Part shown: positions 30,801-61,565 of the stretch, in pieces
Numbering within the stretch: the stretch's first letter is position 1
Layout of the letters: each line of letters begins with the position of its first letter
Assembly: GCF_023055435.1 (NCBI RefSeq)
Contig: NW_025964112.1
Location: forward strand, 21,204,001-21,268,000
Reading direction: 5' to 3'
Origin: Haliotis rufescens
Taxonomy: Eukaryota
DNA: 64,000 nucleotides
Notes under the pieces: generated by a model
Seen by the model: the letters and a program-made list of their open reading frames with translations, nothing else
Told to the model about the DNA's origin: nothing
Database searches by the model: none
Translations under genes and position numbers: made by a program

Positions 30801-33800
30801 ATGGACCCATGCAAAATGGTTCCCTGACCTCCAGCCTCGACTCTGGTATTTCCACATCCTCTGATCTCCATGGTGACTGCATGTCTTATATGGTTTCTTA
30901 CAACATTAATTTGCACTTATGTGTCAAAGAAAGGACATGTTGCATGAACAAACATACATCGCCTTGCAATTAAGTTACTGTCATGGATACTCTTGTGTTC
31001 ATGGTAGATTCTAGTAACATTTTACTAATTTACAAGTAGCTATTAGTAATCTTAATTTGTTTCACACTTTAAACAAAAGGTTTAATTGATGTCTATAAGA
31101 AAAAGGTTTCTGTTTGTCAAAATACAAGTACTTGTAATATATAACAGTAATAATTGTAATTTTTGTGGAAATATTTTTTAAATGGATACAATCTTAATTG
31201 CAGCATGTCCTTGTACATTATATTTCTTACAATTTTAATTTGCACTTATTTGTTATATGTGAAAATGCTGTTATGTTCTTACAATTAATTTTGGCGCTTT
31301 TAATCTGCAAAGTATTAAGCATTCATTATGTTCTGCTTTTAGCCCCTGCTACTTTTGCCTTAATCTTACGATGCCAGTGCCAAGCTCTCATAATTCTTTT
31401 TTCCTGTCAAAGTAGTTAAGAGGCAGCTTTCATTCAAATTTGTTTATATCTTCTACACCTGCTCATCCGGTCATCATACTTACAGGAAAATGTTTTCCCA
31501 GGAATTTCTGTTTTTATCTCAGTTTAGGACGACATGAATATGTTATGGTAATAATTCAAGATAATTGCAGATCTGGAAACTCTACCATGATCAATACAGT
31601 GTTACCCAGCCCTGTGTCAGATAATGGTCCAGGTAGCACATCGTAGACTTGTCTGTGCTTACTGTTTGTTTTTTGTGAAGTACCGCCCATATAGCTGCGT
31701 AACTAACTGTGTCATCCAGATTGTTGAAGAGGTGTCTGACCTTGTTTTTGTGTTCAGGGCTTGTATGTGTGATGTAACTAATTGATAACAGAAACAGCAG
31801 TATATATGTGTATGTATGTAATGTATACATGTGATGGAGGATGGATAGATGGATGTGATATCAGCCTTGAAAGGACTTCTCTTTGTGACCCATATTGAAT
31901 GCATGGGGTACTTAACAAAGCAATTATTGCTGGAATAGTTCATCTGCATACATGTGATCATGGTTTTGCCCAGAAGAGAACAAACATAGTCTTATTGTAG
32001 ATTCCAGCATTCCTTGCAGAGAAAAGTGACTGCCCATGTAATTTTTTGCATAAAAAAACATATCGTGAATATAACATATTTTGACTTCAACCATGTGTGT
32101 TGGATATCATATGGCTCTTTTTCGGACTGGTTTTGTCATTTTCTGCGAGAGATCAGGCTCAAAAGATATGTCTATGGCTGGAAAATCGTTGTGTGCTATT
32201 AAATAAGAGTTTCATGATTTTGTGGGTCCACTGATAATGAAATCAGCATGTATCACTGCAAATATGGGCATTTTAATCAGCTCTGAAGTTTAATTTCCAC
32301 TTTGCTTATGATCCTGATAATTGTATTCCAGCTACAACTGTCAGTCAAAGCCACCAAAGCCATTCGCAGTACAACTCGAATGTGAACGAAGTGATTTCAC
32401 CAAGTTACAGGTCTAGTGTCCAATCTTCTAAGACAAATTACGGATCAAGCACAATGCCCAAACAAACAGTGAAAGCATTAGATGAGCGTACACAGCTAGA
32501 TGAACTATTAAGTGACCTGTTACAGGATCAGGTATTTGTATCCTCCAGTCCAACAAGTCCGAAAGATGCCAGTGCTTCAACCATTACCACAACAACACGA
32601 ACATTCACTACATATAACACGATAGACTCTAATCAGCGAAGTCCAAATCAGAATGTTTCTATTCAGAGAGCGGAAGTGACGTACAAAGTTCCTGGAGCCA
32701 AGGAAGAAAAACACCATTACACGATCACAGCTGGCGGTGAACAGGACCTTCGCAAACCTGGGGTTCCTAAAAATGCATTTTCATACACTGCTACCTCCCC
32801 AACAATTGAGGGGAAAACTGTGCAACCTTTAGAAAAAGAACTAATCCGAAATGCGGAAAATATGCCCAGAATGCAAAGTCCTCCTGGACGTGTTCATACT
32901 CTGCCATACAGGACTGATTATGAAAATAAATACAATGAATATTCCTATCACACGTTAGATGGTTCCAGTTTGCAGCAGCGAGAGGTTGATAATGCATCAT
33001 GGTTGCAGCAGCAGCAAGAGAAGCTCAGGGCAAAGAAAGAAGTTCGGTCTCCTCAAGAGAGGCAACTTGTGTCCGAGCTGCGTTCTGCCCAGAACAAATA
33101 CTATACACGACGCACACAGAATGAAGCGGAGGAACAAGCTGTGATGGAAACTTACAAAACACCTGTAGCAAATGGGCCAGTTTCACCTACAAATGTCCAA
33201 TCGTACAACCCCCCTCAGCGAAGTCAGAGCCACGATGGTTTCTGGTCAAATGACACTCAACCATACAATATGCGTCAGCAGATGTCACCAACAGACAACC
33301 ATTTCAACACATACTCTCAGGCTTACTCAGAATCACGACAGTCTTACAACCGTAGCGTATCTAACAAACCACCCCCCTCCCCAACGCTTCAGAGGTCTAT
33401 GATTTCAGCACCCCCTGTGACCCCTCCAGTTCGAACCAGTAGCAAGGAGTTTATGCGATCTCGATCCAACAGTAGCAGCAGCTGGCAACCCCAACAGCAG
33501 CGTCCTCTTCAACGTCAGGCGTCAGAGACACTCTATGACCGGGACTTTGCACCTCAATCAATCCCTCGTTCATACAGTGCCAGTCATTCACCAAGAGCAC
33601 TGTCACCAGAAGAGCAGGGTCTTCAGCAGGCATCCTTCACGACATACCGCACCATCAAGCACATACACCAGGATGATGACAGTATGACCCGGCAGCAGCA
33701 GCCTCCAGTTCAGATGGCGCCAGAGCCTGTGGCACCTCAAACACAACAACATTATGTAACGGAAGTCTTTGTCCATCGGGGACCAAGTAAGTAGTCATGA

Positions 33801-36800
33801 CAATAATCACAGAATTTTATTGTTGCATAATCATGATCACTTGACATTATGAAGTTGTTGTACAGAACTTTTAAAGTAATTTGCTGACTTGAATGCAAGT
33901 GATCTGAAGTTGAAGATTTCTTGTTTTAAAGTGATATTTACCAATCCAGAGGAAACGTCATAATACTTTTCAAAATTATTATCCTTGTTCTTGTATTTTA
34001 AAAACAAAAGAAAAGCATATCTGTAAACCTTTCAATAATTGAATACATGTGGTTGTTGTTAAATAGTCTAATCTTTGTGATGTACAACATCTTTTATGTT
34101 CATATGTCTACAGTCATGATTTTACTGGTGCATCAGACATCATTAATCATTTTTATCTAATGCAATTTCATTGATTCATTATGTTTTTGGTTCATATTAT
34201 TATATGGTTTTATGCAGTGGAAATGTTTTCAGAAGTTTTTGAGAACTTTTAGATGATCATAGGAAAAAATGATAAGCGTAAAGGGAGATAACCTATAAGA
34301 AGGGAGACAAGTCAGTCTTGGCAGTGGTTTTGAAAGTGTCCTCAATCAGTAGAATAGTTTTTCTGCATGCACAGGTAGTTCTCTCTAGCAATCTTCTAGA
34401 TCGTGAAACTATCACATAGAAACTGGGTATTAACTAATAACTATTTCTCAGTGAGTGATGTGTGCGATTTTATAATATATTGGTAGAAAATGAAACCTTT
34501 TTGTGATTAAATTTCTGGTTATATTTCATGTTGTTAAGTAGACCTGTCAGCTTGAATGGCTTCTAAAAACTTGTAAGGATCTATCATGCATGTTGAATCA
34601 ATTCCTACTTGATTATTATAATAAATCAAGTTTTCATATTGATCTACATTAATCTACGTTAATTATATGATATTTGTTTACACTTTCATTAGATATATTA
34701 CAGATTTCACACTCCCAACATGTTCATCATTACTTGACAGTATTTATTTTACGTATAAATGGGATTAAGAATAAAAACAAAATAGGTCTGTGTGTGTATA
34801 CGACCATTTTCTAGGACTCGCACATCTGCATGGTCTTCCTGTGATTTCTAGGTGCAGTTAGCCAGACACAAGAGAAAGTATCCAAGGACAAGACTGATGG
34901 CATCAGTACAGCAACCCGCCTGGAGGAACTGGAACGGTCCCTCATGGCCGCTGAAGAGTCCATCAAGGCATCGGTGCCACAGCAGTTCTCACAGCAGAAA
35001 CAGGAAGAGGTATTTTTACGGCATGAGACGCGACAGGTGGAATCCCACAGCAGCGTGAGTAATCAGAGCAGCTACACCAGCAACACCACGACGTCCCGCA
35101 GCATGCTGCCCCGGAGTGCATCCCCTGTCTGGGATAATGTTAATATCTATGTATGTATTGTGTATAACCCATCTTTCCCATCTCGCAGAAGCATTTCAGC
35201 TGGAAAAGATAGGATTATATTTTTTCAGTTTTCAATTATTGACAATAATAATGTCAATACTGTAATATTGAAGCTGGTCACAGTTTTTTTAGAAATCTTC
35301 TTTCTTTTGGCCGTGTCTAAATTTGAAAGATGCTACCTGATTCAAATTGTGAGTGCCCAATGCATTTAGCCATTGTAATATTTAGCAGCTGAAATGCTTG
35401 TGCCTTCTGTCTCTGTCCTGGCAGAAGTTTCTTCCGAGCAAATATGAGATTTCATTCAGTACAACAGAGTTGTTTTTTCTTACGATTGATCCATCCATTG
35501 AGAATACTATATAACTGTTAAAACTAATGAAATAATGAAACATTTTATACAGTATTGTGTTGAAAGTAATGGAGTCAAATGGTTTGTCCTGTTACTGTAA
35601 GGTACGTACTAAATTGTCGTAATACTTTCCACTCAAATTCCCCAATGTTAGATGTTGTCACGCCTAAATATACTCTAATTAAGTCCTCAGACTGACCAAT
35701 TCAGCATGTTTGTTCTGGCAAACTTATTCTTTCTGAATTGTATTCATTGACATAACTGTATTTGTCATCTATATTGCATGAGGGTGTGAAATATTTACCT
35801 CGGAACAGTTAATATATTGTATGCTTGTGAACACTTTTATCATTATATGGCATGTCCCAGCAGTGATAGTTGGTTGAATGACAAAAGATTACTGACAGGA
35901 ATGATTTGTGAATTACTCTGTTTGAATATTCCCCATGATCAATGTGCTCATTAAAATAATATAACAATAACTGTAAAGTCTTTAAACACAGTTGCCTAAC
36001 TAGCATGGACTATCGCCATTTAATCTGATTGATGCAAATTGCTATTTGTCAACGTGCATGTTGATTGGTCATGGTCTGTGTTTTATGAAATCAATCAGTA
36101 TACTGACATATCTGTTTGCTGTGAGTGATACTTTGGATTGTGCAAGACTCTCAAATGAGCTTATTTAGATCATACGTGGAGCATTTTTTCAACCATTGAT
36201 AAGTGAATGTGGATAAATCACACTATTCTCAAAGCTGTGCTCATTTATCATTACATCTTTTTGGTCTTTCTGAATAATGATTTCATTGATGCTATGGACA
36301 CATCGCATCTGTCATGGCATTCTGAAAATAGGGTCTTAATGAAAGTGAGGTATTTTCCATTGTTTGCTGTATGGATCAGCACACCTAAATCATCACAACT
36401 TTGGCATGTTATCCAAACATTTTGAGAACAGTCTCTCTATTTTTCTTACCGAGTCAGTTCTTTCATTTCAATTATTACAAAAATTGGATCAGAGGGAAGG
36501 CTGGAACCCTTTGACATGTCTTTGAAAAGACATGTTTCTTTTTGTTAATTCATTTTTACTTTTAACAAATCAACATTACTTTTTGAGGGATCAGTTTTCA
36601 AAAAGATAATTTATTAAGTTTGTTAAGAAAATTTATTCTGAGCACCGAAACTATGACTATGTAAACCAAATCATAAGAAGAAGAAGGCCGAAGTGTCACC
36701 TTTTCACCATGTGTGACTAGATAGTGGTGCCGTGGTCCGTGGTCTCAGCTTGGCTTGGGTCTGCAGTAACTGGGCAGACTCCTGTTTGTCTTCCCAGGAT

Positions 36801-42800: not shown

Positions 42801-45800
42801 GGTGAATGTTACTCCACGCTTGGCTTCAGTAGAGTACTTTTGTAGTGTTTTGTCACAAGCTTTGATGCATTGGAAACTAAGTGTTAAGGTAATAGTTACA
42901 GTTTGTTTACTGGTATATATTTTGAAATATAGTTTCCACATGTCTAATGAAGAGTTGAAATATGTGGCTGATTGTAAATTATGTTTGAAATATTGGGTTA
43001 TTTGCACATACTAACTTTGACCAGTATTCACTAACACTGAAGGAATTTGTTTCAAATCTTTCTATGGGTGATGGACCTTTGTTGAATAGAAATGTTATGA
43101 ATTATTCTAGTGTTCAGATGCTTATATTTATGTATATTGAACATGCTTGAAAGTTGTTAGTTCCAACTAATGAGTTATGTCCTCTTGGTGGGATCAGGTG
43201 GCCTTGTCAGCCCAACTGGAACTTTGAGCCATCAGCAGATGCAGCATACAATGACCCAGCAACATCAGCAACAACAGCAGCAGCAACAGTTGCAACAACA
43301 GCAGCAACAGTTCCAGCAGCAGCAACAACAACAACAGGTTCAACAGCAGCATTTTCAAAATGTGCAAACTCAGCAGTATCAGCAACACCAACAGTTCACA
43401 AACAACAGTGATGGGACTCTGAAGATTGATACCAGTCCACACATGCTTATCTCCCCTCGTAGCCCCTCTTCAGCTGGGAGGTAAGAAATATATAGCTATC
43501 ATTTTATATTTACCAATAGTAATTAGGATATATGTTATTAAATCATAGATAAATACGAAAATTGCCTGTCCAATTTAAAAAAATAATTTTACCATTGAAT
43601 CTTTCGGGTTATAACAATGTTACCAAAATAAACTGGCCATAAATCTAGTATGAGATACGGGTCAAGAATGTAGTCACTTTTTTATATCACATTAATGACA
43701 TTCATTGTTTGAATGAAGAAGCTAGACAATACCCATGGAGATTGCTGTGAATGATGTTGACCTGTCCCCTCGTGTTGTTTCAGCCCCCCTTCCCCCAACA
43801 GCAGCCTCAACACCCTGCGTCAGCAGCTGAGTGCCGCGCACAACATGTCTACTGGCGCCCTCTCCCCAGGCCCCCACTCCATGACCGGACAAAGCTCCCC
43901 CAGCGTGTACTTCGGCATGTCACGGCGAGGCAGTCTGTCCTCTCTCGCAGGTAACACAATGCATGCATCACTTACACATAATTACATGCTAGGATTTTAG
44001 TGTACAGGAAAACATCTGTCAACGTATTTAAATGATGTAAAAGGTGCAACATCAGACTTGTGTTATATCTTGGGCCTTTGGGTTTTTGGCATACTTTGAT
44101 GCAAGTAAATATGTTTATTAGGTATACAGAGAATGTGATAGTGATTTATTTGGCACATACGGTAATTAACCCTGCCACCCTCACTGACATGCACCAATTT
44201 CACTGTTTGTATGTACAGAGGATATCCCAAACTTCACAAAGCAATGTATTTCCTTCATAACAACTAACTTCAAAAGGTCTAAATCCTTGTTATTGTACCT
44301 GAATTGCCAGCCCCTTGGTTTGACCATTGTTGACATTATAAATTGTTTGTAGTGAAGGAACAGATTCAAGGATGTCATGACATATTCACCTTGTATCTAT
44401 TGATTCACTCATGTAGAATACGGTCTTAAGATATATTGTACTCCTTTTATTAGTGCAGTCTACTTTGTTTGGAGTAATGCATGGTGGTTTGACTTTCAGA
44501 TGTTGACATGGTAAATAACACTGCCAGATTTGTGAAAGACACCTCAAAGTACTGGTACAAGCCCAACATCACCAGAGAAGAAGGTATGTGAAGCTATAAC
44601 ATTCAAAATGTAGTTTGAAAAAGATTACATGGCTCGTGCTGAGTGTGGATGAACTGCAAGAAGCCCATGAATATCATGTTTCTGTTCTCTGCTGCAGCTA
44701 TTGTCCTACTGAAGGACAAACAACCAGGAACATTTGTGATCCGTGACAGCAATTCCTTCCCAGGAGCCTTTGGCCTGGCGCTGAAGGTGGCCACGGTCCC
44801 TCCCAACGTCCAGACCAAGACGTCGGGCGACCCTCTAGCTGACCTAGTGAGGCACTTCCTCATTGAACCTACACCTAAAGGTGTTCGACTGCGTGGATGC
44901 AGCAATGAGCCAGTCTTTGGTAAGAGTTGGGCTTTACAATCTGTTGAGAAAACAAGGAATGTTGGACATGACATTCATTTCTAGGCAAATATGGATGGAA
45001 AGGATGAAAATCTTATCAGTTTAAAATGGTCTACAGGGAATATCTATTGTTCTGTATTGATATGCTAAACCTAATTACCTTAAGTATCCACATGGAGTCC
45101 ATCGTCATTTCAAATGATGATACAGATGAGAAATCCCCTGGTGGAGACTGACAGTATGTTTGTGTTTGTTTGTGCAGGTAGCCTAGCAGCCCTAGTGTAC
45201 CAACACTCCATCACCCCTCTGGCTCTGCCCTGTAAACTCAATCTACCAGATGCAGGTGAGCAATACACACACTGTATTATTAGGAAATATTGATGGTGTC
45301 AGCTGTTTTATAACACTGTGAAGGCATCTGTCCTCAGCCAAGACTGATGTGAAACATGTTAATCTGCAGATTACCTGGGCGAGGTGCAGAGTGCTGAAAG
45401 TCCTCGCAGCACAGAAATGCCAAGTTCAGCGGCTGCTCTGTTGGCACAGGGTGCAGGTAGGTTCATCTGCTATTGACCTTCATCTGCTAATTTTCATATT
45501 TTGAACCTCTGCTACAAGTCTTCACATGTAACTCATAGGTCTAAGGCGCCACAATTCACTGTGCAGAGTTATGTCCCTTAGATGGTGCCAGATCGTGCTG
45601 GGTGGTGATAATGATTCTTGGTGTATCGATCACCACTATAACGTTGCTGGTGGGTTTCTCCAAAGCACCAACCTACATCATGAAGCTGTATAAGGTGGCT
45701 TTGACCCCAACTGACAATGACTACCACTGTCTGTTGGGACAGAACAGAACATGTGTATGTGCGGCCATTCGTCAAAAAATACAAAGTTGAAAAAAAGGAC

Positions 45801-48800
45801 AAAAGTACCCTTTTAAGGTCAAATATGACGAATAAAGAACTAAATGTTACTACTAAAGGTCAAAATACAATATTAATAGTCAAATGTTACCAAAAGACAT
45901 CATAAGAAAAGAAAGAACAATGTGTACGAAAGAACGTTAGTGATCACGAAAGGACGTTTTCAATAAAGAACGTCAGTGAGCACAAAAGGACGTTTTCAAT
46001 AAAGAACGTCAGTGAGCACGAAAGGACGTTGACAATAAAGAACGCCAGATGGCGCTGCAATTTGTAAAACATTCCGAGTTTAATCGGCTTGTTCCGCCGT
46101 GTATAGTATATGATAACTGCATGCCGAGGTGCACAATGTGTTACGTCATTCCTTGTGCACTCACCGTCTGACGTCACACATATATATATACATGTATTTA
46201 TAATGTATAATGTACACATTGTGTATAAACATGTTGCGTTAAGCTTTGTCACCGCTTAGGGCCTTTTCATAAATACAGTATACTGTGTAACCCAACATCT
46301 GCCTAACATTGGTACATGCTTTTTGTGTACAATCTTCAAAAAACACTCACTTAACGCTAAACTAGGATTCATCTACAGAGATCCAATAACTGTTCATGCT
46401 TGGTGCAACACGAGGGTGCTATGATGCCGAGTTTTGTTTCAGACGCACATTTTCATCTGAAAAGTGAACGTTGTGCAAGAGTTTGTTTTATTTAACAGCT
46501 TTTCGGAAACTGTGTGCGAACAAAATGCTGCCTAATATCTGAACAACAAATATATATACCAAATGGATTTGTATGCATATGTATAACTTACACATTTGTT
46601 AGGAAAAATAGCTCTCCATAAATAAAGAAAATCGAGTTTCATCTATGACGCCAGCGTTTGTTTTCAAACCATATTTATTTCGCTTGTTTACATCCACATT
46701 TATATGTGTGACGTCAGACGGTGAGTGCACGAGGAATGACGTAATACATTGTGCACCTCGGCATGCAGTTATCATATACACGGCGGAACAAGCCGATTAA
46801 ACTCGGAATGTTTTACAAATTTCAGCACCATCTGGCGTTCTTTATGTCAACGTCCTTTCGTGCTCACTGACGTTCTTTATTGAAAACATCCTTTCGTGCT
46901 CACTGACGTTCTTTATTGAAAACGTCCTTTCGTGATCACTAACGTTCTTTAGTACACATTGTTCTTTCTTTTCTTATGACGTCTATTGTAACATTTGACT
47001 ATTAATATTGTATTTTGACCTTTAGTAGTAACATTTAGTTCTTTATTCGTCATATTTGACCTTAATTGCGTACAATTGTCCTTTTTTTCAACTTTGTATT
47101 TTTTGACCAAATGGCCGCCCAAACATGTGGACTTAAGGATCTTTACCCAAACATGAAAAGTATTGTCATGAATTTGTGCATACAATATTGCTATAAAGAA
47201 CAATGTTGAACACTTAAGAGTTTTATCATGGAAAGCAGTAAGCAGAGGAATTGATGTGATGGTGTTTGTGTTGGTAGCATGCAATGTGATCTTCATCAAC
47301 TCTGTGGACATGGAATCTCTGACTGGACCACAAGCCATAGCTCGGGCTCTCAAGGTCACCCTGGAATCTAACCCAAACCCTGTCACCACAGCTGTGCACT
47401 TCAAGGTGTCCAATCAGGGCATCACGCTCACGGACAACAACAGGAAGTGAGTGTTTACGCTCAGCTACCAACAAATAAAACTTGCTCCAGTTAACTGTTA
47501 TTAATGCTGTTAGTTCTGAGGCAAAGCTGCTTGATAAAGGAATTGACACAGGGACATTTTGCATGCAACAATGATGTAAAATGTACGAACATCAAATATC
47601 TTGATTTATCTGTCCAGGGTAGAGTTAAACTACTTTGGTGGCTTTGGTGTCCAACTGCCTGAACTGTTCTTGTTTGGTTGGACAGCCATCTAGAGCAGAA
47701 ACTATGAAAGTTGCTTGGTCTGTCCTCATTATGCTGCATATGATGTTTTTTTACGAAACTTAACATTGTTGTGATTCTCTAACTCATGCACTCAATCTGT
47801 TACCTCCAGGTTGTTCTTCCGTCGTCACTACCCAGTTTCAGCTGTTACCTTCTGTGGCATGGACCCAGATAGCAGGAAGTAAGTACATTACAGGCGGCAT
47901 CATCAGTGGGAACTGAGAGGGGGGTCTAGTCATGTAGTACTGGGGGACATGGCAGTCCCTGTCATCTCAATGCGCATCTTCCCCAGGCAAGGGAGTTACA
48001 TGACTGTAAAAGTCCAGTTTTTACCCTTTGCTGAACTAAGCTGGAATTTCGGGGTTTGATCGTAGCACCACCAGTGGCTATTACAAGTTACGTCTCTTCT
48101 ACGTCCTTCCTCCTGACCACTCAGATTCCACCTACTATATTACTTGCATTTGCTTCAAATAGAATGGTGCCACCTTCTGATTGATAATCAAGATCTTTAT
48201 TGTAATACAATGGGTCTTTCCTTGCGAAGTGAGCATCATCATTAAACACATGAAAGGATTTAGAAATTATCTGTCGACGCCCATTTGATAGTAAACATGC
48301 TGTGCAAATCCTTCAATCAACGGAATGTAGTAGCCATGTTGTTTATGATCCAGATGTCGATTTCGTTAAGCTATAATTCTTGTGAATACCTCACCTCTAT
48401 CACATCAGTGCCATAAATTCCTGTTTATGCTGAGAACCACACTATAAATTTTTATAAATTTTCAACAGACGTCCACTACACTGCCAACATATCCATAGTT
48501 GTGAGGGAAACCCTATCCCTTGCCAGAGGCGCCACTGCGCATGCGCAAGGCGGGAATCTAGTCACTTCTTTCCTGTGTGTCCAGATGACAACAAGGAAAA
48601 TATTTTGTTGCACATCCGTACACGTGATTGAGTTCCACACTTACAAAGCACATTAGATCTTCTCAAGCTTCATAGGCTACAAGCAGTGAGCAGTCTACAA
48701 GCAGAGAACGGGGGTATAAGAAGATCGGAAGTTCTAGTAAGTAATTAGTTAGAAACGTTTTGTGGGATGAGATCTTCATCTCAAGGACAGACACCCGTCT

Positions 48801-49939
48801 GTTCAGGCTGTGGGCAACACCAGATACCTGGTGACCCTCACCCTAGATGTCTATCATGCAAACAACTGCACACAAAAGTCAAGGTGCAGCTATTGCGAGC
48901 CTCTGTCAAAGGAGAAAATTGACAAGCTCTACAAGGCATGTATCAACAATCCTGATTACAAAGATTACTAGCGCATCAAGTAAAAACAAGTGATTAAGCT
49001 CTTGGTGGCCATATTAATCACGTGGGTTACAAGCGAGTGTCGCGCGAGGGCGCCGTCTCACCTTATGAGGAGAAGAGAACGCGTCGCTCATCCCACTCTC
49101 CCAAAAGTTGAGGAGCAGATGCATTTTACCGGTCAAAAAGAAAGTGCCTCTAACTTGCATCCGGCAACGTATGGTACGGTCGATCATCGAGTTTGGACAG
49201 AAACTAACGATCTTCACCCTCTGCCGCGTTCCCCCTTTTAACTTAATTGAGTTCGGAATTCAATGTCTGTAATGATGTATAAAGCGTAAAAGCGCGAGTG
49301 TCGCGCGAGAGCGCCGTCTCACCTTATGAGGAGAAGAGACCCCGTCGCTCATCCCACTCTCCCAAAAGTTGAGGAGCAGATGCATTTTACCGGTCAAAAA
49401 GAAAGTGCCTCTAACTTGCATCCGGCAACGTCTGGTACGGTCGATCATCGAGTTTGGACAGAAACTAACGATTTTCACCCTCTGCCGCGTTCCCCATTTA
49501 ACTTAAATGAGTTCACGGAAAGAATAACAAAATTCAATGTCTGTTATGATTGACGCACGCATGCAATCTATGACCCGGCTTGGCCATACAGGGGTCGATC
49601 AGATTGATAAAAGCGCATGCAATCAATGTCTCAGAAAATCTCATATCCAAAAGAATCTGTCGCACAACCCCGGCTTGGCCATACAGGGGTCGATCAGATT
49701 GATAAAAGCGCATGCAATCAATGTCTCCGGAAATCTCATATCCAAAAGAATCTGTCGCACAACCCGGGCTTGGCCAACAGGGGTCGATCACAAGATTCAA
49801 GAGACCTAAGGATCTCCCAATAAAGTTGAGGAGCAGATGTACCTCACAGGTTTTTAACTAAAGGGATTCGGAGAAATTAACCAACTCAATGTTGTAATAA
49901 TTGATAAAAGCGCACGCAATCAAGGGCTCAGGAATAAAA

Positions 49940-49995
<56 letters not shown>

Positions 49996-52900
49996 TGCAC
50001 AAACCCGGCATGACCAAACGGGGATTGATAAGCACGAGATTAAGTGAGATATAAGGCTGAATATGGCAGTACTTCCTCATACAGCAGACAAGCAAGCCTA
50101 CGCTGTATCTGATTATTATGAGGACACAGGAGAACAAAAAGAGATAGATTACCTCCCTACCACGTACACCATAGGGCAGATCGTGAATCACGGACATTGC
50201 ATCGCAGTATGCTCAGAAATACACACCATTCACCCTCTAGCCATAAGATAGACGAACTGACAAAGCTCGTGCTAATCAGGATAGAATTCCTAAGCATGCG
50301 CCATCTCATACTGCCGCACAGTCCAGTTACACGGGCGGAGAAGCGAGGGAGATGTTACGTCACTATCACACAGTTATAGAACACGTGATTCCCGCACGGC
50401 CAGTCGTAGATCAGACGACCGGGATTACGCTACCCTCAGCCATATGACCCAGTCTCAGCACAGCCCGAGTAGGGGGTGCGGATCTATTGCTAATACTGTT
50501 TTTTATACAGTGGGGATTCTACTACGGAGGTTAATTATAGACCAAATAATTATACCATTAACATATCATTGCAGAACTCTATAAACTAATGCCCGCCCTT
50601 TAAAACAGATACAAGGACAAAATACCAAGATGACCTTGTTAGAACGTGACGGGTAGGAGGTACCGGTCAGTTGATTCTAGAATTCCTTACCCTTCCCTGT
50701 TCGTCATATATTGATGACGTCATCAAGAATCGAATATTCATTAAATGCTACTTTCGGCACTTAATGTTAGACTGGGTATGCCTGCCATTAATAAGAGTGA
50801 TTACACAAGTTGCCCCTGCGCACAGCAGCCGAGCATCGTTGAACTTTTCTACTAACGTCATACCCCGAACAATCAGAACGTAGGCCTACACTTAGACACC
50901 CCACGGAGATGACACTACAGCAGACCGGTTTAATCAACAGCTCACTGGAACACATTCTGAAGATGCAGGAAGATCTTCAATCAGCAACCGGACTAACGTC
51001 AAGAAGCACAGTTCCTGCTAAAGATGATCATCCCACTTCGCAGAGGAGGAAGCAGAAGCAGTCCCCGAAGGGGATACCACCGGAAATGCCTTCAGACCCT
51101 ACCGACATCGCTTGCCCAATGGACAACGATTTAGAACTACAGAAGATCAAAGATACGACCACATCGAATCCAGTCGAACTAGCCGGTCTCACAGACATCG
51201 ACCCAAGATTACACAAGTTCAGCAAGGGGCTATCAGCACCTTAAAAGAGTCAAGAGACCACTCACGGGTTCTACTCCCCAGTACTCCAGGTACCTACACT
51301 TTGCAGTCAACGGTCAGAGATACCAGTTCAGGGTACTACCATTCGGCATATCCTTAGCCCCATGGTTATTCACCAGGATCACCAATCCCATCATCGGTTT
51401 GCGCCCATATAAGCTCATAAGGCTTCTCGTATATAGACGATTTCCTATTGGCCGATCAGGACAAGCGCAATTAGTTTAAACACAGTGTGCCTCACTACTA
51501 ACAATCTTAGGTTTCCTGGTTCACCCTCTAAAACAGAGCTAGTACCCACACAGGCATCACCTACATAGGCGCAAGATTCTACTCAACAAGGGGCATAGCA
51601 GCACCCACAGAGGACAGATATGCAAGAGTAGAGCACATGATAACAAGCCCACTCGATCAGGCCGTCAAGTCGAGACGCTGGTGGATGTCTCGCCTATGCC
51701 CGCTCACATCTATCCAAGATTTAACCTACAGAGGCACAAGGTCTCAGCCTTTACTGAAGGAGGTTACATGTTTATATGCCTTGGTGGACTCAGTGAGTTG
51801 CAAGATCGAAGTAAGACACATTCCGGGGAAGCTAAATATACTAGCAGATTACCTATCCCGGAAAAACAAGATAGTACCCACAGAATGGTCACTACATCCC
51901 GAGGTGTTCAAGTGGATAACCCAGGTATGGGACAGTCCAAACATAGATCTATTCGCCACATGTCTCAACAACAAACTACCAGTCTATGTCAGCCCGGTAC
52001 CAGACCCACTAGCACTCCAAGTCGATGCGCTCTCCATGGAATGGAAGGGAATGTTTGCTTACGCATTTCCCCCATGGGCTCTCCTAGACAGAGTACTGAG
52101 GAAAATAGAGGAAACGGACTGTGTCATAATCCTCATAGCCCCGGCCTGGCCAAAAAGGGCTTGGTTTCCGAGACTCCTACAACTGCTGCTAGAAGTACCT
52201 CTGAAACTCCCAGTACGTCCCGACCTATTGAGACAACCAAAGACGGACATATTTTACGGCCGCCTCGACAACCTCCATCTTCACGCTTGGAAGTTATCTC
52301 GCATAAGATGCAAGCAGCCGGTTACTCTGAATCAGCTGCACGAAGAGTGGCTAGCTCATGGAGACCAACCTCATCTGCGATATACAATAACAGATGGGAC
52401 AAGTTCGTCGAATGGAGAAGAGGAAAACAGTTACATGGAGATATAACGATACCTATAGTAGCCGATTTCTTGCTCCATCTCAGAAATGACAAGAATTTAC
52501 GACACGGCACTATCGAAGGATATAGATCAGCCCAGTCATCAGTATTACAACACGATGACCTATCTATAGGTACCCATCCAGTACTAAATCGACTTATGAA
52601 GTCTTTTGCCCTGGAAGATATAAAAGTACCACGTACTTTTCCTAAATGGGATCTATCTATAGTATTGTCGGCATTGATGAAAGCACCGTATGAACCCATG
52701 AGTAGTGCGACATTACTATCAGTCTCCAAGAAAACTGCTTTTCTCTTAGCCATGGCTACGGCGGCTCGCGTGTCAGAACAACACGCTATTGACATCTCCA
52801 CTGTAACCCATACCAAAGAATGGAAATCAGTGTCGTTCAGATCGCTCCCTGAATTTATTGCCAAAAACCAGTCGTCAACCTTCGGCCCACTCGGACATCG

Positions 52901-55900
52901 GCAATACACAATTCCAGCCTTAAGTAAAAGTGTGGACTTCCCGGATAGATTGCTTTGCCCCATAAGAGCCTTGAGATATTTTATCACAGCGACTCAACCC
53001 CACAGAAAGCAGAGAAAACGCCTATTTATCTCTTGCAAGCCCTCGTCAGAAAAGGACATCGCAAAGGGCACTAGCGGGATGGCTAAAAACAGCTATCACA
53101 GATAGCTATAAAACGGCACAAATCTCCACTCCGATTTGGGGTAGCTGCAGACCCCACGAAATCAGAGCACTGGCAACAAGCCTAGCCACATGGAATACTG
53201 CATCCATCGAACAAATCGTGGCCAGCTGCCAGTGGAAGTCCCACAACACTTTTTCAAACTTTTACTTACGAGACATACAGACCGATCTAAATGGACTATA
53301 CACTCTGGGGCCTTTGGTGGCTCCCCAGGTGATAGTTACCAAATAAAGTAACCTGTTCCCTCCCTCTTCCAAGAAAGGGAAAAGAGAGGGGGGGGGGGTG
53401 AAGATTTCAGAAGTACCTCAGGAACTCAGGGTAAGTTGTACTTTGTTACTGGACTGCGCTATTGAGTTAGTAAAACAGGGCAAATGTCAACACTGAAATC
53501 AGAGATCGAAGGATTAAGTGATATACGGTAATCTACATGATAGGAAGGTTAATGTATTACCACCGGAAGTGACGTCATAGGAGTCATCACACCGGAGAAA
53601 CGTTAAGATACGTTAAATATCACTATCCAAAAGGGCATTACGGTAAACCACGTCATAAGTGATACGGGAGAATAGTGACACCGGAAGTGACGTCACAGAT
53701 GACGTCATCACCGGAAGTGACGTCACAGATGACGTCATCACAGGAAACGACGTCACTAAAAAGTCTAAGTATCACAAGGGAATATACATATACCCTTCAC
53801 ATGACGCCTTGAAAATTCTATACGTCTAAGTCTTGTAAGTAGACTATTAGACACATCCGTTTAAGACCCCTTTTGGCATATAATCCTTGGTTTTACCACT
53901 TCACTAGCCAAATATCTATGGGATGCTAGATACCAGAACCCGCCGGTCCCTCTGGTGTATACTGGCACTGATGTGATAGAGGTGAGGTATTCACAAGAAT
54001 TATCAAACAATAGTTATCATTGTGAATAATTCTAAGAATACCACCTCTATCACATCAGGAATTAATCCCTCCCACCTCCCCAAATATCTGCATCTAGTTT
54101 ATGAGAGTATGGGTTGAAAGAAGTGACTAGATTCCCGCCTTGCGCATGCGCAGTGGCGCCTCTGGCAAGGGATAGGGTTTCCCTCACAACTATGGATATG
54201 TTGGCAGTGTAGTGGACGTCTGTTGAAAATTTATAAAAATTTATAGTGTGGTTCTCAGCATAAACAGGAATTTATGGCACTGATGTGATAGAGGTGGTAT
54301 TCTTAGAATTATTCACAATGATAACTATTGTTTGATTTTGATTGGACTATGCATTAGCCTATTTCAGCAAGGGTGGAACAGGACTTATTGTCAGTTAGTT
54401 CCCTTGCCTCAGAAAGATGCTAGATGTGTCCCTCTGCATAGTTTCTCTTATAGGTACCAATAACTATATTTGTGATTGGGGTGCCTGGGAGGGATCTATG
54501 ATCATAGGTTCAAATTCTGGTTTGCCCCAATGATGTTTCTAGGTTTGTCAGGACCATCACTGCTTGTGGGTTTCACTGAACTGGTGAACGTCAGACCTGC
54601 ATAATTTTGGGCTTTCCTCCCACATTAGTTGACACCGTGATATAACTGGAATACTGTTCAAAGAGGCATTAAACAATACTCATATAATTGTGGGATACTC
54701 AAATAGTAACTGCTGCTGATATTTTGTCAGTGTCAGCACCTTACTCTGCTCATTGGTTTCACCTAAGTGGTTTATGTGTGTCACTTAAATGGTTCCTCCC
54801 ACGTTAAATGTCACACTGGTGATGGTTACAAACCTTATTCAGTCACAGATGCAGCCTTGTATTTCTAGATGGAAATTTGTATGTAGCCACTGTGTCTTAC
54901 CTGTTTGTTTGGTTGTAGGTGGAAGCGGGAAACAGATGTATCTGGGATGCAAGTTGAAGCCAAGTGAGTTAAACTGGGCTCTGAAATAATAGTTTCAAAT
55001 ATTTTTATTGAATATTGCGGTGCAGACCTCAGTTGTCTAGATAAGAGAACAGTTAAGGAATTACCGCAGATATGACTTGGATACTGTGTTTTTATCAGCC
55101 TAAAAAAAAGTGAGCTTTCTTAGATAACTCTCCCATTCTTAACATACCGATATGTAAATGTTTTCCATCCAGACAATTTTCGGTATTAGGGTCAGCTTAT
55201 TATGAATGGATAAACTATATTACATGTAAATTAATGTAAGATAATTGTCACTGAGTATTATTGCAATTGTTACTTTGTTTTCAATCCTTGCAAAATGGCC
55301 CATAGCAATGTGACGTCATGTGAACGCTTGGTGGCATATAATTGAAGCTGTCATCCATTGTTCATGGTATCCTGATATTATTGTACAGGTTACTGTTATC
55401 TAACATTGTTCCAACAGTAGAGTAATGCCATTTGAAATCAGGAAACCCATATTTTCTCAGTAAAAACATATGTTTAATGTTAAGAATAACCTTCACGTAA
55501 CTCATAATTACAGATTATATGTTGCTTGTTAATTAACATTGTTAATACGCTAGGGACAGTGAATGTGTAATTCCGAGATGCAAGTACGTTGTATAATATG
55601 TGATGGTAGGATAGCCAAGTGGTTAAATCATTGTCTCATCAAACTGAAGACTATGTGAAGACCATACCGGGTATCCCCATGCCATGATATGGCTGGATTA
55701 TTTCCAAAAGTGGCATAAACCCTACTCATGCACTCAATCTATTACAATAATAACTTGACCCACTAAGTTACCCTTTGCATACTGTTTTGTGTCTTCTTCA
55801 GGATCTTTGGCTTTGTAGCCAGGAAACAGGGTGGAGTGTCTGACAATTCATGTCATTTGTTCGCTGAGCTGGATCCCGAACAACCCGCTTCAGCCATCGT

Positions 55901-55949
55901 CAACTTTGTAACGAAGATCATGATTGGTCAAAGCAAGATTAAGTCGTAG
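6637..55949 (+). CDS. TNS: Tensin-family gene, 5'-partial, spliced: join(6637..6839,14922..14990,29641..29742,30645..30872,32332..33786,34852..35054,39708..39876,40704..40751,42126..42287,43198..43480,43784..43950,44500..44583,44698..44919,45178..45255,45370..45456,47278..47446,47810..47878,54919..54963,55802..55949)
   Basis: Every junction is GT-AG with matching phase when translated by hand. Tensin hallmarks occur in the expected order: C2 ([35 protein letters not shown]), [33 protein letters not shown]2 ([31 protein letters not shown]), PTB ([48 protein letters not shown]). Confidence 0.95.
9689..10280. mobile_element. Degenerate MITE-like element
   Basis: Starts TA-CAGTAGAGCATGGATATAAC; imperfect inverted match gttatatccgtg near 10250; more CpG than the surroundings. 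Confidence 0.4.
10975..11305. repeat. 74-bp tandem repeat, ~4.5 copies
   Basis: gctctacatagtacccactgttctaatctgtggtcagtgg at 10989, 11063, 11137, 11213 and (degenerate) 11287. Confidence 0.9.
14922..14990 (+). CDS. TNS: Tensin exon, end of C2 domain
   Basis: tgtttcag|AT CCA CGG; [23 protein letters not shown]; donor CAG|gtgagt. Missed by the ORF track. Confidence 0.93.
14988..25574. repeat. Intronic satellite, 54-bp unit, ~195 copies, with higher-order duplications
   Basis: gtgtgtccagcaggggagaacttctatgtccttctactgtataatgtataacta; source of all the minus-strand [17 protein letters not shown] ORFs. Confidence 0.98.
25625..26060 (+). mobile_element. 3' fragment of a non-LTR retrotransposon (CR1/L2-group-like), interrupted by the gap
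   Basis: [33 protein letters not shown] resembles the C-terminal SxHxLxIExGR..RLCxxC motif; (TCTTA)n-like tail at ~26041-26059. Confidence 0.55.
25810..25937. other. Assembly gap (128 N)
   Basis: Run of N. Confidence 1.
29641..29742 (+). CDS. TNS: Tensin exon after C2 domain
   Basis: gaattcag|; (V)[33 protein letters not shown] resembles the tensin LIRWDSY motif; donor A|gtatgt. Alternative acceptor possible at 29646. Confidence 0.88.
30645..30872 (+). CDS. TNS: Tensin exon
   Basis: cctttcag|CT GAT; contains [17 protein letters not shown] (tensin QGPLDGSLYA motif) and SLDSGIS; donor G|gtgact. Confidence 0.88.
32332..33786 (+). CDS. TNS: Tensin large exon, disordered S/P/Q/T-rich middle region
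   Basis: gtattccag|CT ACA; 1455 nt open frame (ORF 32382..33794); LDELLSDL and [10 protein letters not shown] motifs; donor A|gtaagt. Confidence 0.9.
34852..35054 (+). CDS. TNS: Tensin exon (alternative donor possible at 35150)
   Basis: gatttctag|GT GCA; [52 protein letters not shown]; donor AGC|gtgagt, phase 0. Confidence 0.8.
38267..39061 (+). CDS. Candidate alternative first (or cassette) coding exon of tensin, 265 codons, acidic D/E/S-rich
   Basis: Non-repetitive 268-codon ORF in an AT-rich intron; in-frame TGA 30 nt upstream of the ATG; ends CAG|gtagtg in phase 0, matching the phase-0 acceptor at 39708. Confidence 0.5.
39708..39876 (+). CDS. TNS: Tensin exon, proline-rich
   Basis: tttttccag|AGC CAG; [56 protein letters not shown]; donor G|gtacgt. 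The true frame is not one listed in the ORF track. Confidence 0.82.
40704..40751 (+). CDS. TNS: Tensin 48-nt exon
   Basis: gtttctag|TT ACC; [16 protein letters not shown] matches the tensin FPVSPxTPY motif; donor CAG|gtaaaa. Confidence 0.85.
42126..42287 (+). CDS. TNS: Tensin exon (symmetric phase 1-1, skippable)
   Basis: Strong (CT)n tract + cag; [39 protein letters not shown]; donor CAG|gtagac. Confidence 0.8.
43198..43480 (+). CDS. TNS: Tensin exon with polyglutamine tract
   Basis: ggatcag|GT GGC; [16 protein letters not shown]..poly[24 protein letters not shown]; donor AG|gtaaga. Confidence 0.82.
43240..43395 (+). repeat. Coding CAG/CAA repeat (interrupted poly-Q)
   Basis: cagcaacaacagcagcagcaacag.. 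in frame within the exon. Confidence 0.9.
43784..43950 (+). CDS. TNS: Tensin exon preceding SH2
   Basis: gtttcag|C CCC; [38 protein letters not shown]; donor CAG|gtaaca. Confidence 0.85.
44500..44583 (+). CDS. TNS: Tensin exon, start of SH2 domain
   Basis: [28 protein letters not shown]; donor AAG|gtatgt. Confidence 0.95.
44698..44919 (+). CDS. TNS: Tensin exon, SH2 core
   Basis: [56 protein letters not shown]; donor G|gtaaga. Confidence 0.97.
45178..45255 (+). CDS. TNS: Tensin exon, end of SH2
   Basis: [26 protein letters not shown]; donor CAG|gtgagc. Confidence 0.95.
45370..45456 (+). CDS. TNS: Tensin exon, SH2-PTB linker
   Basis: [29 protein letters not shown] (tensin SAAxLLxQGA motif); donor CAG|gtaggt. 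Confidence 0.92.
45756..47121. mobile_element. Non-autonomous foldback DNA transposon with ~425-bp inverted repeats
   Basis: 45759-46185 is the reverse complement of 46701-47120; internal ~33-bp subrepeats (aaaggacgttttcaataaagaacgtcagtgagcac); AACATGTG on both flanks (45748-45755, 47122-47129). Confidence 0.88.
47278..47446 (+). CDS. TNS: Tensin exon, PTB domain
   Basis: [46 protein letters not shown]; donor AA|gtgagt. Confidence 0.96.
47810..47878 (+). CDS. TNS: Tensin exon, PTB domain
   Basis: [23 protein letters not shown]; donor AA|gtaagt. Confidence 0.96.
48373..48572. repeat. DIRS left inverted terminal repeat
   Basis: 48392-48572 is the reverse complement of 54116-54296 with no mismatch seen by eye. 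Confidence 0.95.
48767..48971 (+). pseudogene. DIRS gag-like N-terminal Cys/His finger remnant
   Basis: [31 protein letters not shown] / frameshift / [18 protein letters not shown].. then TAG. Confidence 0.55.
49033..49514. repeat. ~261-bp direct duplication inside the DIRS element
   Basis: gcgagtgtcgcgcga..acttaaWtgagttc at 49033 and 49294. Confidence 0.9.
49574..49790. repeat. 95-bp tandem repeat inside the DIRS element
   Basis: tggccatacaggggtcgatca at 49581 and 49676, variant at 49771; poly-A run follows at 49943-49990. Confidence 0.85.
51285..52305 (+). pseudogene. DIRS pol remnant: reverse transcriptase, RNase H tail, Dam-like methyltransferase domain
   Basis: [31 protein letters not shown]; YIDDFLL at 51430; [15 protein letters not shown]; [30 protein letters not shown]. 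Frameshifts, and the RT N-terminus and RNase H core are missing. Confidence 0.9.
52308..53346 (+). pseudogene. DIRS tyrosine recombinase with one frameshift near 53070
   Basis: [14 protein letters not shown] (R), CPIRAL, then in a shifted frame [18 protein letters not shown] (HxxR)..[16 protein letters not shown] (W, Y), stop at 53344-53346. Confidence 0.92.
53563..53755. promoter_or_regulatory. Cluster of ETS-CRE composite and CRE motifs in the DIRS 3' non-coding region
   Basis: CCGGAAGTGACGTCA at 53563, 53681, 53711; extra TGACGTCA at 53700 and 53730. Confidence 0.55.
53963..54058. other. DIRS internal complementary region (ICR)
   Basis: First half is complementary to the element's left end, second half to the right-end extension; joined at ..gaattATcaaac.. 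Confidence 0.93.
54116..54336. repeat. DIRS right inverted terminal repeat plus extension
   Basis: Reverse complement of the left ITR followed by an extension (..attcacaatgataactattgtttgat) that matches the ICR. Confidence 0.95.
54919..54963 (+). CDS. TNS: Tensin 45-nt exon, PTB domain
   Basis: ggttgtag|G TGG AAG; [15 protein letters not shown]; donor AA|gtgagt; phase 2-2 fits both neighbours. Confidence 0.88.
55603..55740 (+). mobile_element. Degenerate tRNA-derived SINE remnant
   Basis: A-box-like tagccaagtggttaa; 3' end gatatggctggattatttccaaaagtggcataaac + actca tail resembles the tail at 6255-6290; a similar remnant at ~54490-54685. Confidence 0.45.
55802..55949 (+). CDS. TNS: Tensin last coding exon, end of PTB
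   Basis: [49 protein letters not shown]. Confidence 0.97.
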
Positions 55950-60123: not shown

Positions 60124-61565
60124 TTATTATCCCCCGCCGCGCGAAAGCGCGAAGCGGGGGATATAGTATTCACGACCGTCCGTCCGTCCGTACGTCCGTC
60201 CGTCCGTACGTCCCACCTGTTTGTTGCCGCGATATCTCAAGAACTAAACACTGGATTGTCTTCATATTTGGAACTATGGTGTATATACAGACTCCGCAGA
60301 CACCAGTCGGTTTTGGTGACCTTGATCCCATTTTCAAGGTCACAGCAGACAAATCTGCTTTTAGAGTTGGAAAACGGTGTTGCCGCGATATCTCAAGAAC
60401 TAAACACTGGATTGTCTTCATATTTGGAACTATGGTGTATATACAGACTCCGCAGACACCAGTCGGTTTTGGTGACCTTGATCCCATTTTCAAGGTCACA
60501 GCAGACAAATCTGCTTTTAGAGTTGGAAAACGGTGTTGCCGCGATATCTCAAGAACTAAACACTGGATTGTCTTCATATTTGGAACTATGGTGTATATAC
60601 AGACACCGCAGACACCAGTCGGTTTTGGTGACCTTGACCCCATTTTCAAGGTCACAGCAGGCAAATCTGCTTTTGGAGTTGGAAAACGGTGTTGCCGCGA
60701 TATCTCAAGAACTAAACACTGGATTGTCTTCATATTTGGAACTATGGTGTATATACAGACTCCGCAGACACCAGTCGGTTTTGGTGACCTTGATCCCATT
60801 TTCAAGGTCACAGCAGACAAATCTGCTTTTAGAGTTGGAAAACGGTGTTGCCGCGATATCTCAAGAACTGAACACTGGATTGTCTTCATATTTGGAACTA
60901 TGGTGTATATACAGACACCGCAGACACCAGTCGGTTTTGGTGACCTTGACCCCATTTTCAAGGTCACAGCAGGCAAATCTGCTTTTAGAGTTGGAAAACG
61001 GTGTTGCCGCGATATCTCAAGAACTAAACACTGGATTGTCTTCATATTTGGAACTATAGTGTATATACAGACTCCGCAGACACCAGTCGGTTTTGGTGAC
61101 CTTGATCCCATTTTCAAGGTCACAGCAGGCAAATCTGCTTTTAGAGTTGGAAAACGGTGTTGCCGCGATATCTCAAGAACTAAACCTCTCGATTGTCTTC
61201 ATATTTGGAACTATGGTGTATATACAGACACCAGTCGGTTTTGGTGACCTTGACCCCATTTTCAAGGTCACAGCAGGCAAATCTGCTTTTGGAGTTGGAA
61301 AACGGTGTTGCCGCGATATCTCAAGAACTAATCGCTGGATTGTCTTCATATTTGGAACTATAGTGTATATACAGACACCGCATACACCTGTCAGATTTGG
61401 TGACCTTGGCCCCATTTTCAAGGTCACAGCAGGCAAATCTGTTTTTGGAGTTGGAAAACGGTGTTGCCACAATATCTCAAGAACTAATCGCTGGATTGTC
61501 TTCATATTTGGTACTATGGTGTATATGGCGGGGGATATTTCGTCACTCTGTGACAAATACTTGTT
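60124..61565 (+). mobile_element. Helentron/DINE-1-like non-autonomous element carrying ~8.3 copies of a 156-bp repeat
   Basis: 5' atcccccgc..gcgggggat stem, (GTCC)n microsatellite, 156-bp tandem array, 3' gcgggggata subterminal inverted repeat, terminal hairpin gtcac-tct-gtgac, T-rich ends. Confidence 0.8.

Follow-up and report, generated by a model that had tools for sequence, protein, structure and literature searches.

Target-site geometry and one-sided crossover in a DIRS1 retrotransposon family of Haliotis rufescens

A DIRS1 retrotransposon lies at positions 48373 to 54336 of a 64,000-nucleotide stretch of the Haliotis rufescens genome (RefSeq assembly GCF_023055435.1, contig NW_025964112.1, positions 21,204,001 to 21,268,000, forward strand), which we call the window. 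The element itself is an ordinary DIRS1 member; what is new is the geometry of the targets used by its family and a crossover confined to one side. The targets have the consensus AAH-[6 bases ending in AT]-DTT, that is, two mirror-image tracts around a 6-base spacer, and the junctions, judged from their sequences, fit the exchange of one strand pair only. We consider it fairly probable that a single exchange of the minus (complementary DNA, cDNA) strand takes place at the right edge of the spacer, with a donor that is probably single-stranded. The accepted model of DIRS integration is based on the end triplets of single elements, and the value of this family is that its population of insertion footprints makes the mechanistic question testable: from about 100 young insertions in six families we obtain where the cut falls, how long the spacer is, what the half-site motif looks like and which strand is involved, and these are direct predictions for an oligonucleotide assay.

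Target sites and the position of the crossover

At least 60 exact left ends and at least 53 exact right ends of the window copy's family (the main family) are present in the genome, and reversed control patterns gave none. These counts are lower bounds; a preliminary search gave 793 candidates, of which 40 were scored. A pattern begun 9 bases further inside found the same 60 places, so the left boundary is fixed. An earlier note on this DNA, made from the letters alone, had staked its boundaries on their recurrence in other copies, and the ends are indeed sharp and common to the family. We examined all 60 left-end loci and found a right end within 8.4 kb in 52 of them, which are treated as complete, paired copies. 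Three of the 60 left ends are tandem pieces of one insertion, and two of these were dropped to leave 58 independent left flanks; 8 extra right ends were added to give 60 right flanks.

With positions numbered from the AT, the left flanks of the main family carry A at -9 in 36 of 58 and A at -8 in 43 of 58, with G at -7 in 2 of 58, while none of the 60 right flanks has C at +3, and T stands at +4, +5 and +6 in 54, 44 and 38 of them. The best of 38 mirror registers tested pairs -9 to -7 with +3 to +5 around a 6-base spacer (dot 33.3, r 0.84). The AAH-6-DTT motif, which was drawn up with the data already in view, matches 33 of the 52 targets as against 474 of 5783 background AT sites, and the AT itself is common to 53 of 58 targets. 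Because the family's own left end is unlike the arm preferred in targets, pairing at the core can be told apart from preference by the protein.

As an independent set we took 40 loci of other DIRS1 families, of which 38 had both ends and fell into five families, F2 to F6; L200 and L213 were left out because no left end was found. Each of these families has a single cut point, at which an invariant right end stops and an invariant left end starts. Of their 38 targets, 27 have A at -9, none has C after the cut and 31 have T at the third base; the 6-bp register is again the best (38 sites; dot 21.0, r 0.68). In F4, F5 and F6 the circle junction, too, is an AAH-6-DTT dyad.

The earlier note had proposed that this family recombines at AT, with the AT as its core. 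The crossover is at the AT, but the AT forms the right-hand border of the 6-bp spacer of a dyad and is not a free-standing 2-bp core; identity at these bases is preferred but not required, as 3 of the 38 other-family sites match at neither core base. The idea that AT is unique to this family had to be given up: F5 and F6 also use AT, and 2-bp junctions are already published for BfDIRS2 and AmDIRS1 (PMC3266345 Table 3).

The crossover is strongly one-sided. The element's spacer was seen on the left flank in 0 of 96 insertions (0/58 in the main family, 0/38 in the others), and right ends keep it, with 4 mismatches in 1248 bases in the main family and 2 in 228 in the other families. In the pooled set, the left dinucleotide departs from that of the circle in 31 of 90 paired copies and the right one in 3 of 90 (p 5.6e-8), and in most copies of the other families the left and right dinucleotides differ. 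The triplet to the right of the cut equals the start of the element in 0 of 60 main-family sites and 4 of 38 other-family sites. Carry-over of spacer bases as in Tn916-type elements is ruled out by its absence from all 96 left flanks. None of the 60 loci has a left end fused to a right end. The internal complementary region (ICR), which joins copies of the two element ends, is intact in 66 of 67 matches, a count from which overlaps between loci were not removed; the matches come from 66 distinct places by hand count, and the 7 beyond the earlier loci all have an intact ICR. One hit, at L131, is an inverted extension of a left inverted terminal repeat (ITR). No integration at the ICR, and no ICR-split or permuted copy, was present among the ICR matches found.

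In all 52 complete copies the AT is present in the ICR. Eight of the 52 have unequal left and right dinucleotides, never with both departing in one copy, and in 6 of these AT is missing on the left but kept on the right. A left end without AT beside a right end with AT excludes duplication, and a true target-site duplication (TSD), which the earlier note had also denied, is thus ruled out by the unequal dinucleotides together with the ICR-encoded AT. For 15 of the 52 copies the flanks recur elsewhere in the DNA that was fetched, and the gap between them is always 2 bases (0 to 6 were allowed), AT being the commonest gap dinucleotide in 13 of these 15 paralogous empty sites. The empty site with a single AT that had been predicted for the window copy was seen in one public contig of run X8, at single-copy depth (12), which joins 48372 to 54335 with 35 letters on its shorter side and 2 letters fitting either side. 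An additional join at lower depth in run X8, and two joins in run X5 that span the element but hold other letters at the joint, could be paralogous repeats or other alleles. Among the joints listed for runs X6 and X10 there is no join across the element. No circle junction is among the contig joints listed, which speaks neither for nor against circles. Joints near the insertion point with a side of 21-22 come from a high-copy repeat in the flank and were not used.

Proposed mechanism and alternatives

In tyrosine recombination the bottom strand is cut at the right spacer edge, and the freed 5' end has to pair beside this point. In the mechanism that we favour, the AAH and DTT tracts would be the two recombinase half-sites, the right spacer edge would be the bottom-strand cut and the bottom strand would be first-strand cDNA. 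The 1-2 bases beside the cut would be tested for pairing, which would account for the AT common to target and element; a second exchange would be blocked by mismatch in the spacer, and replication or host resolvases would complete the integration. The donor would probably be a folded single-stranded cDNA, with its junction paired to the ICR or with the ITR ends in a hairpin, and the window copy would have been moved in trans by the proteins of intact copies. In Dictyostelium cells DIRS-1 cDNA is antisense and single-stranded, and the circle junction could not be amplified by inverse polymerase chain reaction (PMC7192593).

Parallels exist outside the retroelements. The exchange of 5'-OH ends in tyrosine recombination is described in PMC3442271, and integrons and CTXphi are established cases of a single exchange with a blocked second exchange and replicative resolution (PMC3458562, PMC3442271). 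Integron attC x attI recombination resembles the proposed mechanism in exchanging one strand, in its folded single-stranded donor and in its replicative resolution; unlike an integron, DIRS is a retroelement with many degenerate targets and a recombinase nearer to Cre (PMC3458562). In the recombination of CTXphi attP(+) with dif by XerC, inverted sites in one strand fold into a duplex site and mismatch in the overlap blocks the second exchange, but CTXphi uses host XerCD and one chromosomal site whereas DIRS has its own recombinase and many targets (PMC3442271). By analogy with these two systems, a single exchange in DIRS is likely to be resolved by replication or host enzymes. Cre-loxP and the Tn1549 integrase have in common with the present system a two-domain tyrosine recombinase fold and a dyad site around a short spacer, but Cre requires full spacer identity, Cre and the Tn1549 integrase exchange two strand pairs, and no carried-over spacer bases are seen in the insertions here.

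Several observations weigh against this mechanism or against parts of it. In the main family r is slightly higher (0.87) for a 9-bp register, though the score is lower, and in F2 to F6 the 7- and 5-bp registers come close to the 6-bp one (17.8 and 15.0 versus 21.0). The circle junctions of the main family, F2 and F3 lack the AAH left arm, and the window copy's own target site, with GTT at -9 to -7, lacks it as well, unlike most family sites. L114 and L140 (2 of 52) keep AT at the left end but show GT or TT at the right end; these departures may be point mutations, or may reflect an occasional crossover to the left of the A. The assignment of the strand is based on the general chemistry of tyrosine recombinases, the genomic junctions are equally compatible with a single- or a double-stranded donor, and the recombinase model is nearer to Cre (Z 19.8) than to the integron integrase (Z 14.9). 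When the end hairpin was compared with shuffles, it was clear only in F5 (z -3.6), with z of -2.0 in the main family and -0.8 to -1.4 in the four others. The hairpin is thus not upheld as a general feature of these elements.

The closest alternative is a double-stranded circle as donor, with one exchange at the right edge, a Holliday junction resolved by host nucleases or replication, and the ICR avoided through determinants in the outer ITR or loading in cis. It overlaps with the single-stranded proposal in all steps except the form of the donor, accounts for the one-sided crossover equally well and retains the published circular double-stranded intermediate (PMC7192593), but it requires an extra rule for the lack of ICR-split copies, and only single-stranded cDNA has been detected in Dictyostelium (PMC7192593). 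A duplex circle has two identical 96-bp sites and a folded single strand has one, so the lack of ICR-split copies among those found favours the folded donor, and we regard the duplex circle as unlikely. Still less probable is a full two-strand exchange over a 6-bp mismatched spacer, as in Tn916 and Tn1549, with subsequent repair that always keeps the minus-strand product. The 6-bp dyad, the tolerance of mismatch beside the cut and the two copies that depart on the right would all suit it, but unbiased segregation would leave the element's spacer on the left in about half of the insertions and not in 0 of 96.

The published model taken literally, with recombination at a short identity (3 bp, here 2 bp) and a flank bias that reflects DNA shape or AT-richness only, draws on the AT common to 53 of 58 targets and on the agreement of start and end triplets in 18 of 26 published elements with a 3-bp junction (hand count, PMC3266345 Table 3). 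We think it very improbable, given that the triplet right of the cut so seldom equals the element start (0/60 and 4/38 sites), that 3 of 38 sites match neither core base, and that the flank bias is position-specific and mirror-symmetric. The poorest account of the data, and one that we find extremely improbable, is a 2-bp TSD produced by staggered cutting at AT as the preferred target. The empty site has one AT and the filled site two, which is formally what a duplication would give, but the ICR encodes the AT in every complete copy, left and right differ in 8 of 52 copies and in most copies of the other families, and the element has no Pfam match to a DDE integrase.

Returning to the single exchange of a folded minus strand, we can ask how far it extends to DIRS1 elements already published. 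An NTT triplet forms the 3-bp circular junction in 23 of 28 elements and is thus common but not universal (PMC3266345). Among the 26 elements with a 3-bp junction, 7 match at the start only, 1 at the end only and 18 at both (hand count, PMC3266345 Table 3), and six of the seven start-only elements have ends that read N-D-T (PMC3266345). Such ends fit a cut just to the left of a DT(T) arm, though the annotators picked triplets to match. In the published DIRS1-like elements the common bases are described as a 3-bp identity core (PMC3266345), whereas here they are the edge of a 6-bp spacer. We would suggest, as a possibility that falls somewhat short of probable, that DIRS1 elements in general integrate in the manner of integron cassettes and CTXphi, with a folded minus-strand cDNA, an AAH-6-DTT dyad and one strand exchanged. 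The ICR would then be the complementary strand of the attachment site and not just a template, and the published NTT "circular junction" would mostly be a recombinase binding arm. If true, this would be an animal example of tyrosine-recombinase integration that exchanges a single strand and is resolved by replication.

None of the titles and abstract openings that we found describes a 6-bp dyad target or an exchange of single strands in DIRS elements; target preferences may have been noted before in the main reviews, older papers and supplements. PMC7192593 does not use the terms integron, CTX or XerC; according to that paper, the specificity of the DIRS recombinase was without experimental study as of 2020. 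The passages drawn on from PMC13465315, PMC8969392 and bioRxiv 10.64898/2026.05.21.726589 give general description only. A recombinase able to place 6 kb into short degenerate target sites with no TSD would also interest genome engineers.

The window copy

The features of the window copy and its immediate surroundings are as follows.

47277..47447, + strand: upstream host exon, PTB profile positions 1-59
48364..48372, + strand: host flank, target positions -11 to -3, with GTT at -9..-7
48373..54336, + strand: whole DIRS1 copy, 5964 bp, of defective chimeric sublineage B
48373..48374, + strand: left AT, final two bases of the 6-bp target spacer, probably host-derived
48375..48391, + strand: divergent left ITR part, the element start; first 9 bases invariant in 60/60 copies
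48392..48572, + strand: conserved left ITR, 181 nt, 100% complementary to the right ITR
48573..51736, + strand: old decayed 5' half, 68-91% to intact copies, with a broken gag
49033-49508, + strand: duplication of 261 bp inside the decayed 5' half
49574-49790, + strand: 95-bp tandem inside the decayed 5' half
49943-49990, + strand: A48 run inside the 95-bp repeat unit of the element
near 51216-51443, + strand: reverse transcriptase (RT) remnant, E 2.8e-5
51731..51736, + strand: deletion joint and switch to the young 3' half, common to 20 copies, with about 385 pol bases gone
51737..53346, + strand: young 3' coding half, comprising the pol end (methyltransferase-like region) and the tyrosine recombinase frame, 98-100% to intact copies
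53963..54058, + strand: ICR, reverse complement of the right end (57) plus the left end (41)
54116..54296, + strand: conserved right ITR, 181 nt
54297..54336, + strand: divergent right ITR and right extension, ending in an element-derived AT (AT in 58/60 right ends)
54337..54341, + strand: host right arm of the target, TTTGA here (preference D-T-T-T-G)
55791..55937, + strand: downstream host PTB exon, profile positions 81-130

The left end of the copy starts at the AT at 48373-48374 and the right end stops at the AT at 54335-54336. The left AT is probably host-derived, since it varies in 6 of 60 left ends and the empty allele has a single AT. Beyond the 181-nt ITR arms there are 40 further bases on the right, the right extension, and this terminal segment (54297..54336) is able to fold back on the left end. 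The two halves of the ICR are 100% complementary to the first 41 and last 57 bases and overlap on one AT at 54002-54003; the reverse complement of the ICR thus reads right end, AT, left end, with the letters and coordinates that the earlier note gave, and its role as a template for the circle junction is supported. The junction is intact in 52 of 52 complete copies. The same note had spoken of a fully readable end architecture; this is right for the ends, but its title could be taken to imply a readable element, and the interior has a broken gag, a broken pol and a recombinase frame with a shift near 53070. The longest frames are 304 and 520 codons, as compared with 720, 806 and 1034 in intact copies, and the window copy is not autonomous. 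Sister copies of the A48 run have at most 19 A, which points to a recent expansion or a read artefact and not to a poly(A) tail.

Identification as DIRS1 is supported by the ITRs, the ICR, RT and RNase H, the overlapping tyrosine recombinase frame and the lack of a TSD. The terminal repeats are inverted and not split direct repeats of the Ngaro or PAT kind. Like published DIRS1-like elements (DIRS-1 of Dictyostelium; the molluscan LgDIRS1-3 and AcaDIRS1-2; BfDIRS2), the family has conserved and divergent ITR parts, a right extension and a two-part ICR, along with gag, pol and overlapping tyrosine recombinase frames and no TSD (PMC3266345). NTT ends are common among the published elements but the ends here are AT; membership in DIRS1 stands all the same, as members without NTT are listed (PMC3266345). 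Intact copies here are 6.63 kb long, compared with up to 6283 bp among the 28 DIRS1-like elements tabulated in PMC3266345, and have a long overlap of open reading frames, a feature that PMC3266345 did not see in its molluscan elements.

Family history, encoded proteins and host locus

The three open frames are retained in 7 of 52 complete copies, and five of these seven are mutually 99.91-99.98% identical; the family is young. A sublineage of 21 of the 52 copies, the window copy included, has a decayed 5' half (68-91% to intact copies), and one pol deletion joint is common to 20 of the 21. Nineteen of the 21 have a 3' part that resembles intact copies at 94-100%, and across this half the window copy and L149 are 99.9% identical; in L126 and L147 the 3' part is mostly 86-94% to intact copies and represents the older state. 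On these similarities, the defective lineage gained its young 3' half and ends, probably by template switching. L121 is an intact three-frame copy with a 5' patch (about 200-500) from the defective sublineage, so recombination has gone in both directions.

Other copies depart in form. L093-L095 (G000:C1:41970237-41973183) are one insertion in a minisatellite, with the first kilobase and host repeat tandemly triplicated. At L131 (G000:C201:734389) the left terminus is lengthened by about 90 bases that are a reverse copy from inside the right end, likely through a template switch beyond the ITR, and L211 has ITRs of about 510 bases, akin to this extension. F2 and F3 (L193-L212, L229-L231) have nearly identical termini and ICR, with recombinases at about 97% versus 62-76% to P0020, which suggests that the ends have been exchanged or that there was cross-mobilisation. 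A DIRS recombinase whose source gives it as Haliotis cracherodii has a 97% match in this genome.

In Pfam searches the intact copy L099 gave RVT_1 (E 1.7e-22), RT_RNaseH (E 0.0033, under the curated cut-off) and, in the third, overlapping frame, Phage_integrase (E 0.0049); no methyltransferase was matched at E 0.05. The pol end has DLFA and FPPW motifs, which may belong to a methyltransferase-like region. Residues R175, K207, H305, R308, W331 and Y341 are kept in at least 90% of 49 recombinase sequences. A search of the recombinase sequence against PDB gave no match, but a fold search with its predicted model (predicted local distance difference test score, pLDDT, 88.6) matched Cre/Tre (Z 19.8, root-mean-square deviation 4.5, 294 aligned), followed by XerH (Z 16.4) and the integron and Tn1549 integrases (Z 14.9).

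The window copy has the same orientation as a tensin-like gene and sits between two of its PTB exons; the SH2 and PTB exons of this gene lie at 44643-55946 on the plus strand, and large low-complexity exons at 32277-33794 and 34845-35369 may also belong to it. At 45929-46951 there is a foldback-like element of about 1 kb with inverted arms made of 36-bp tandem units. Elsewhere in the window, a 54-bp tandem repeat with long minus-strand open frames occupies 14988-25574 (196 copies, 10.6 kb, 91% matches), and a 156-bp unit is repeated 8.4 times at 60222-61526 (95% matches), preceded by a CCGT microsatellite. A high-copy repeat at 54470-54674, with a motif that is presumably tRNA B-box-like, is also found at L108 and L132, two family copies that entered this repeat family at one and the same AT, which makes it a recurrent target.

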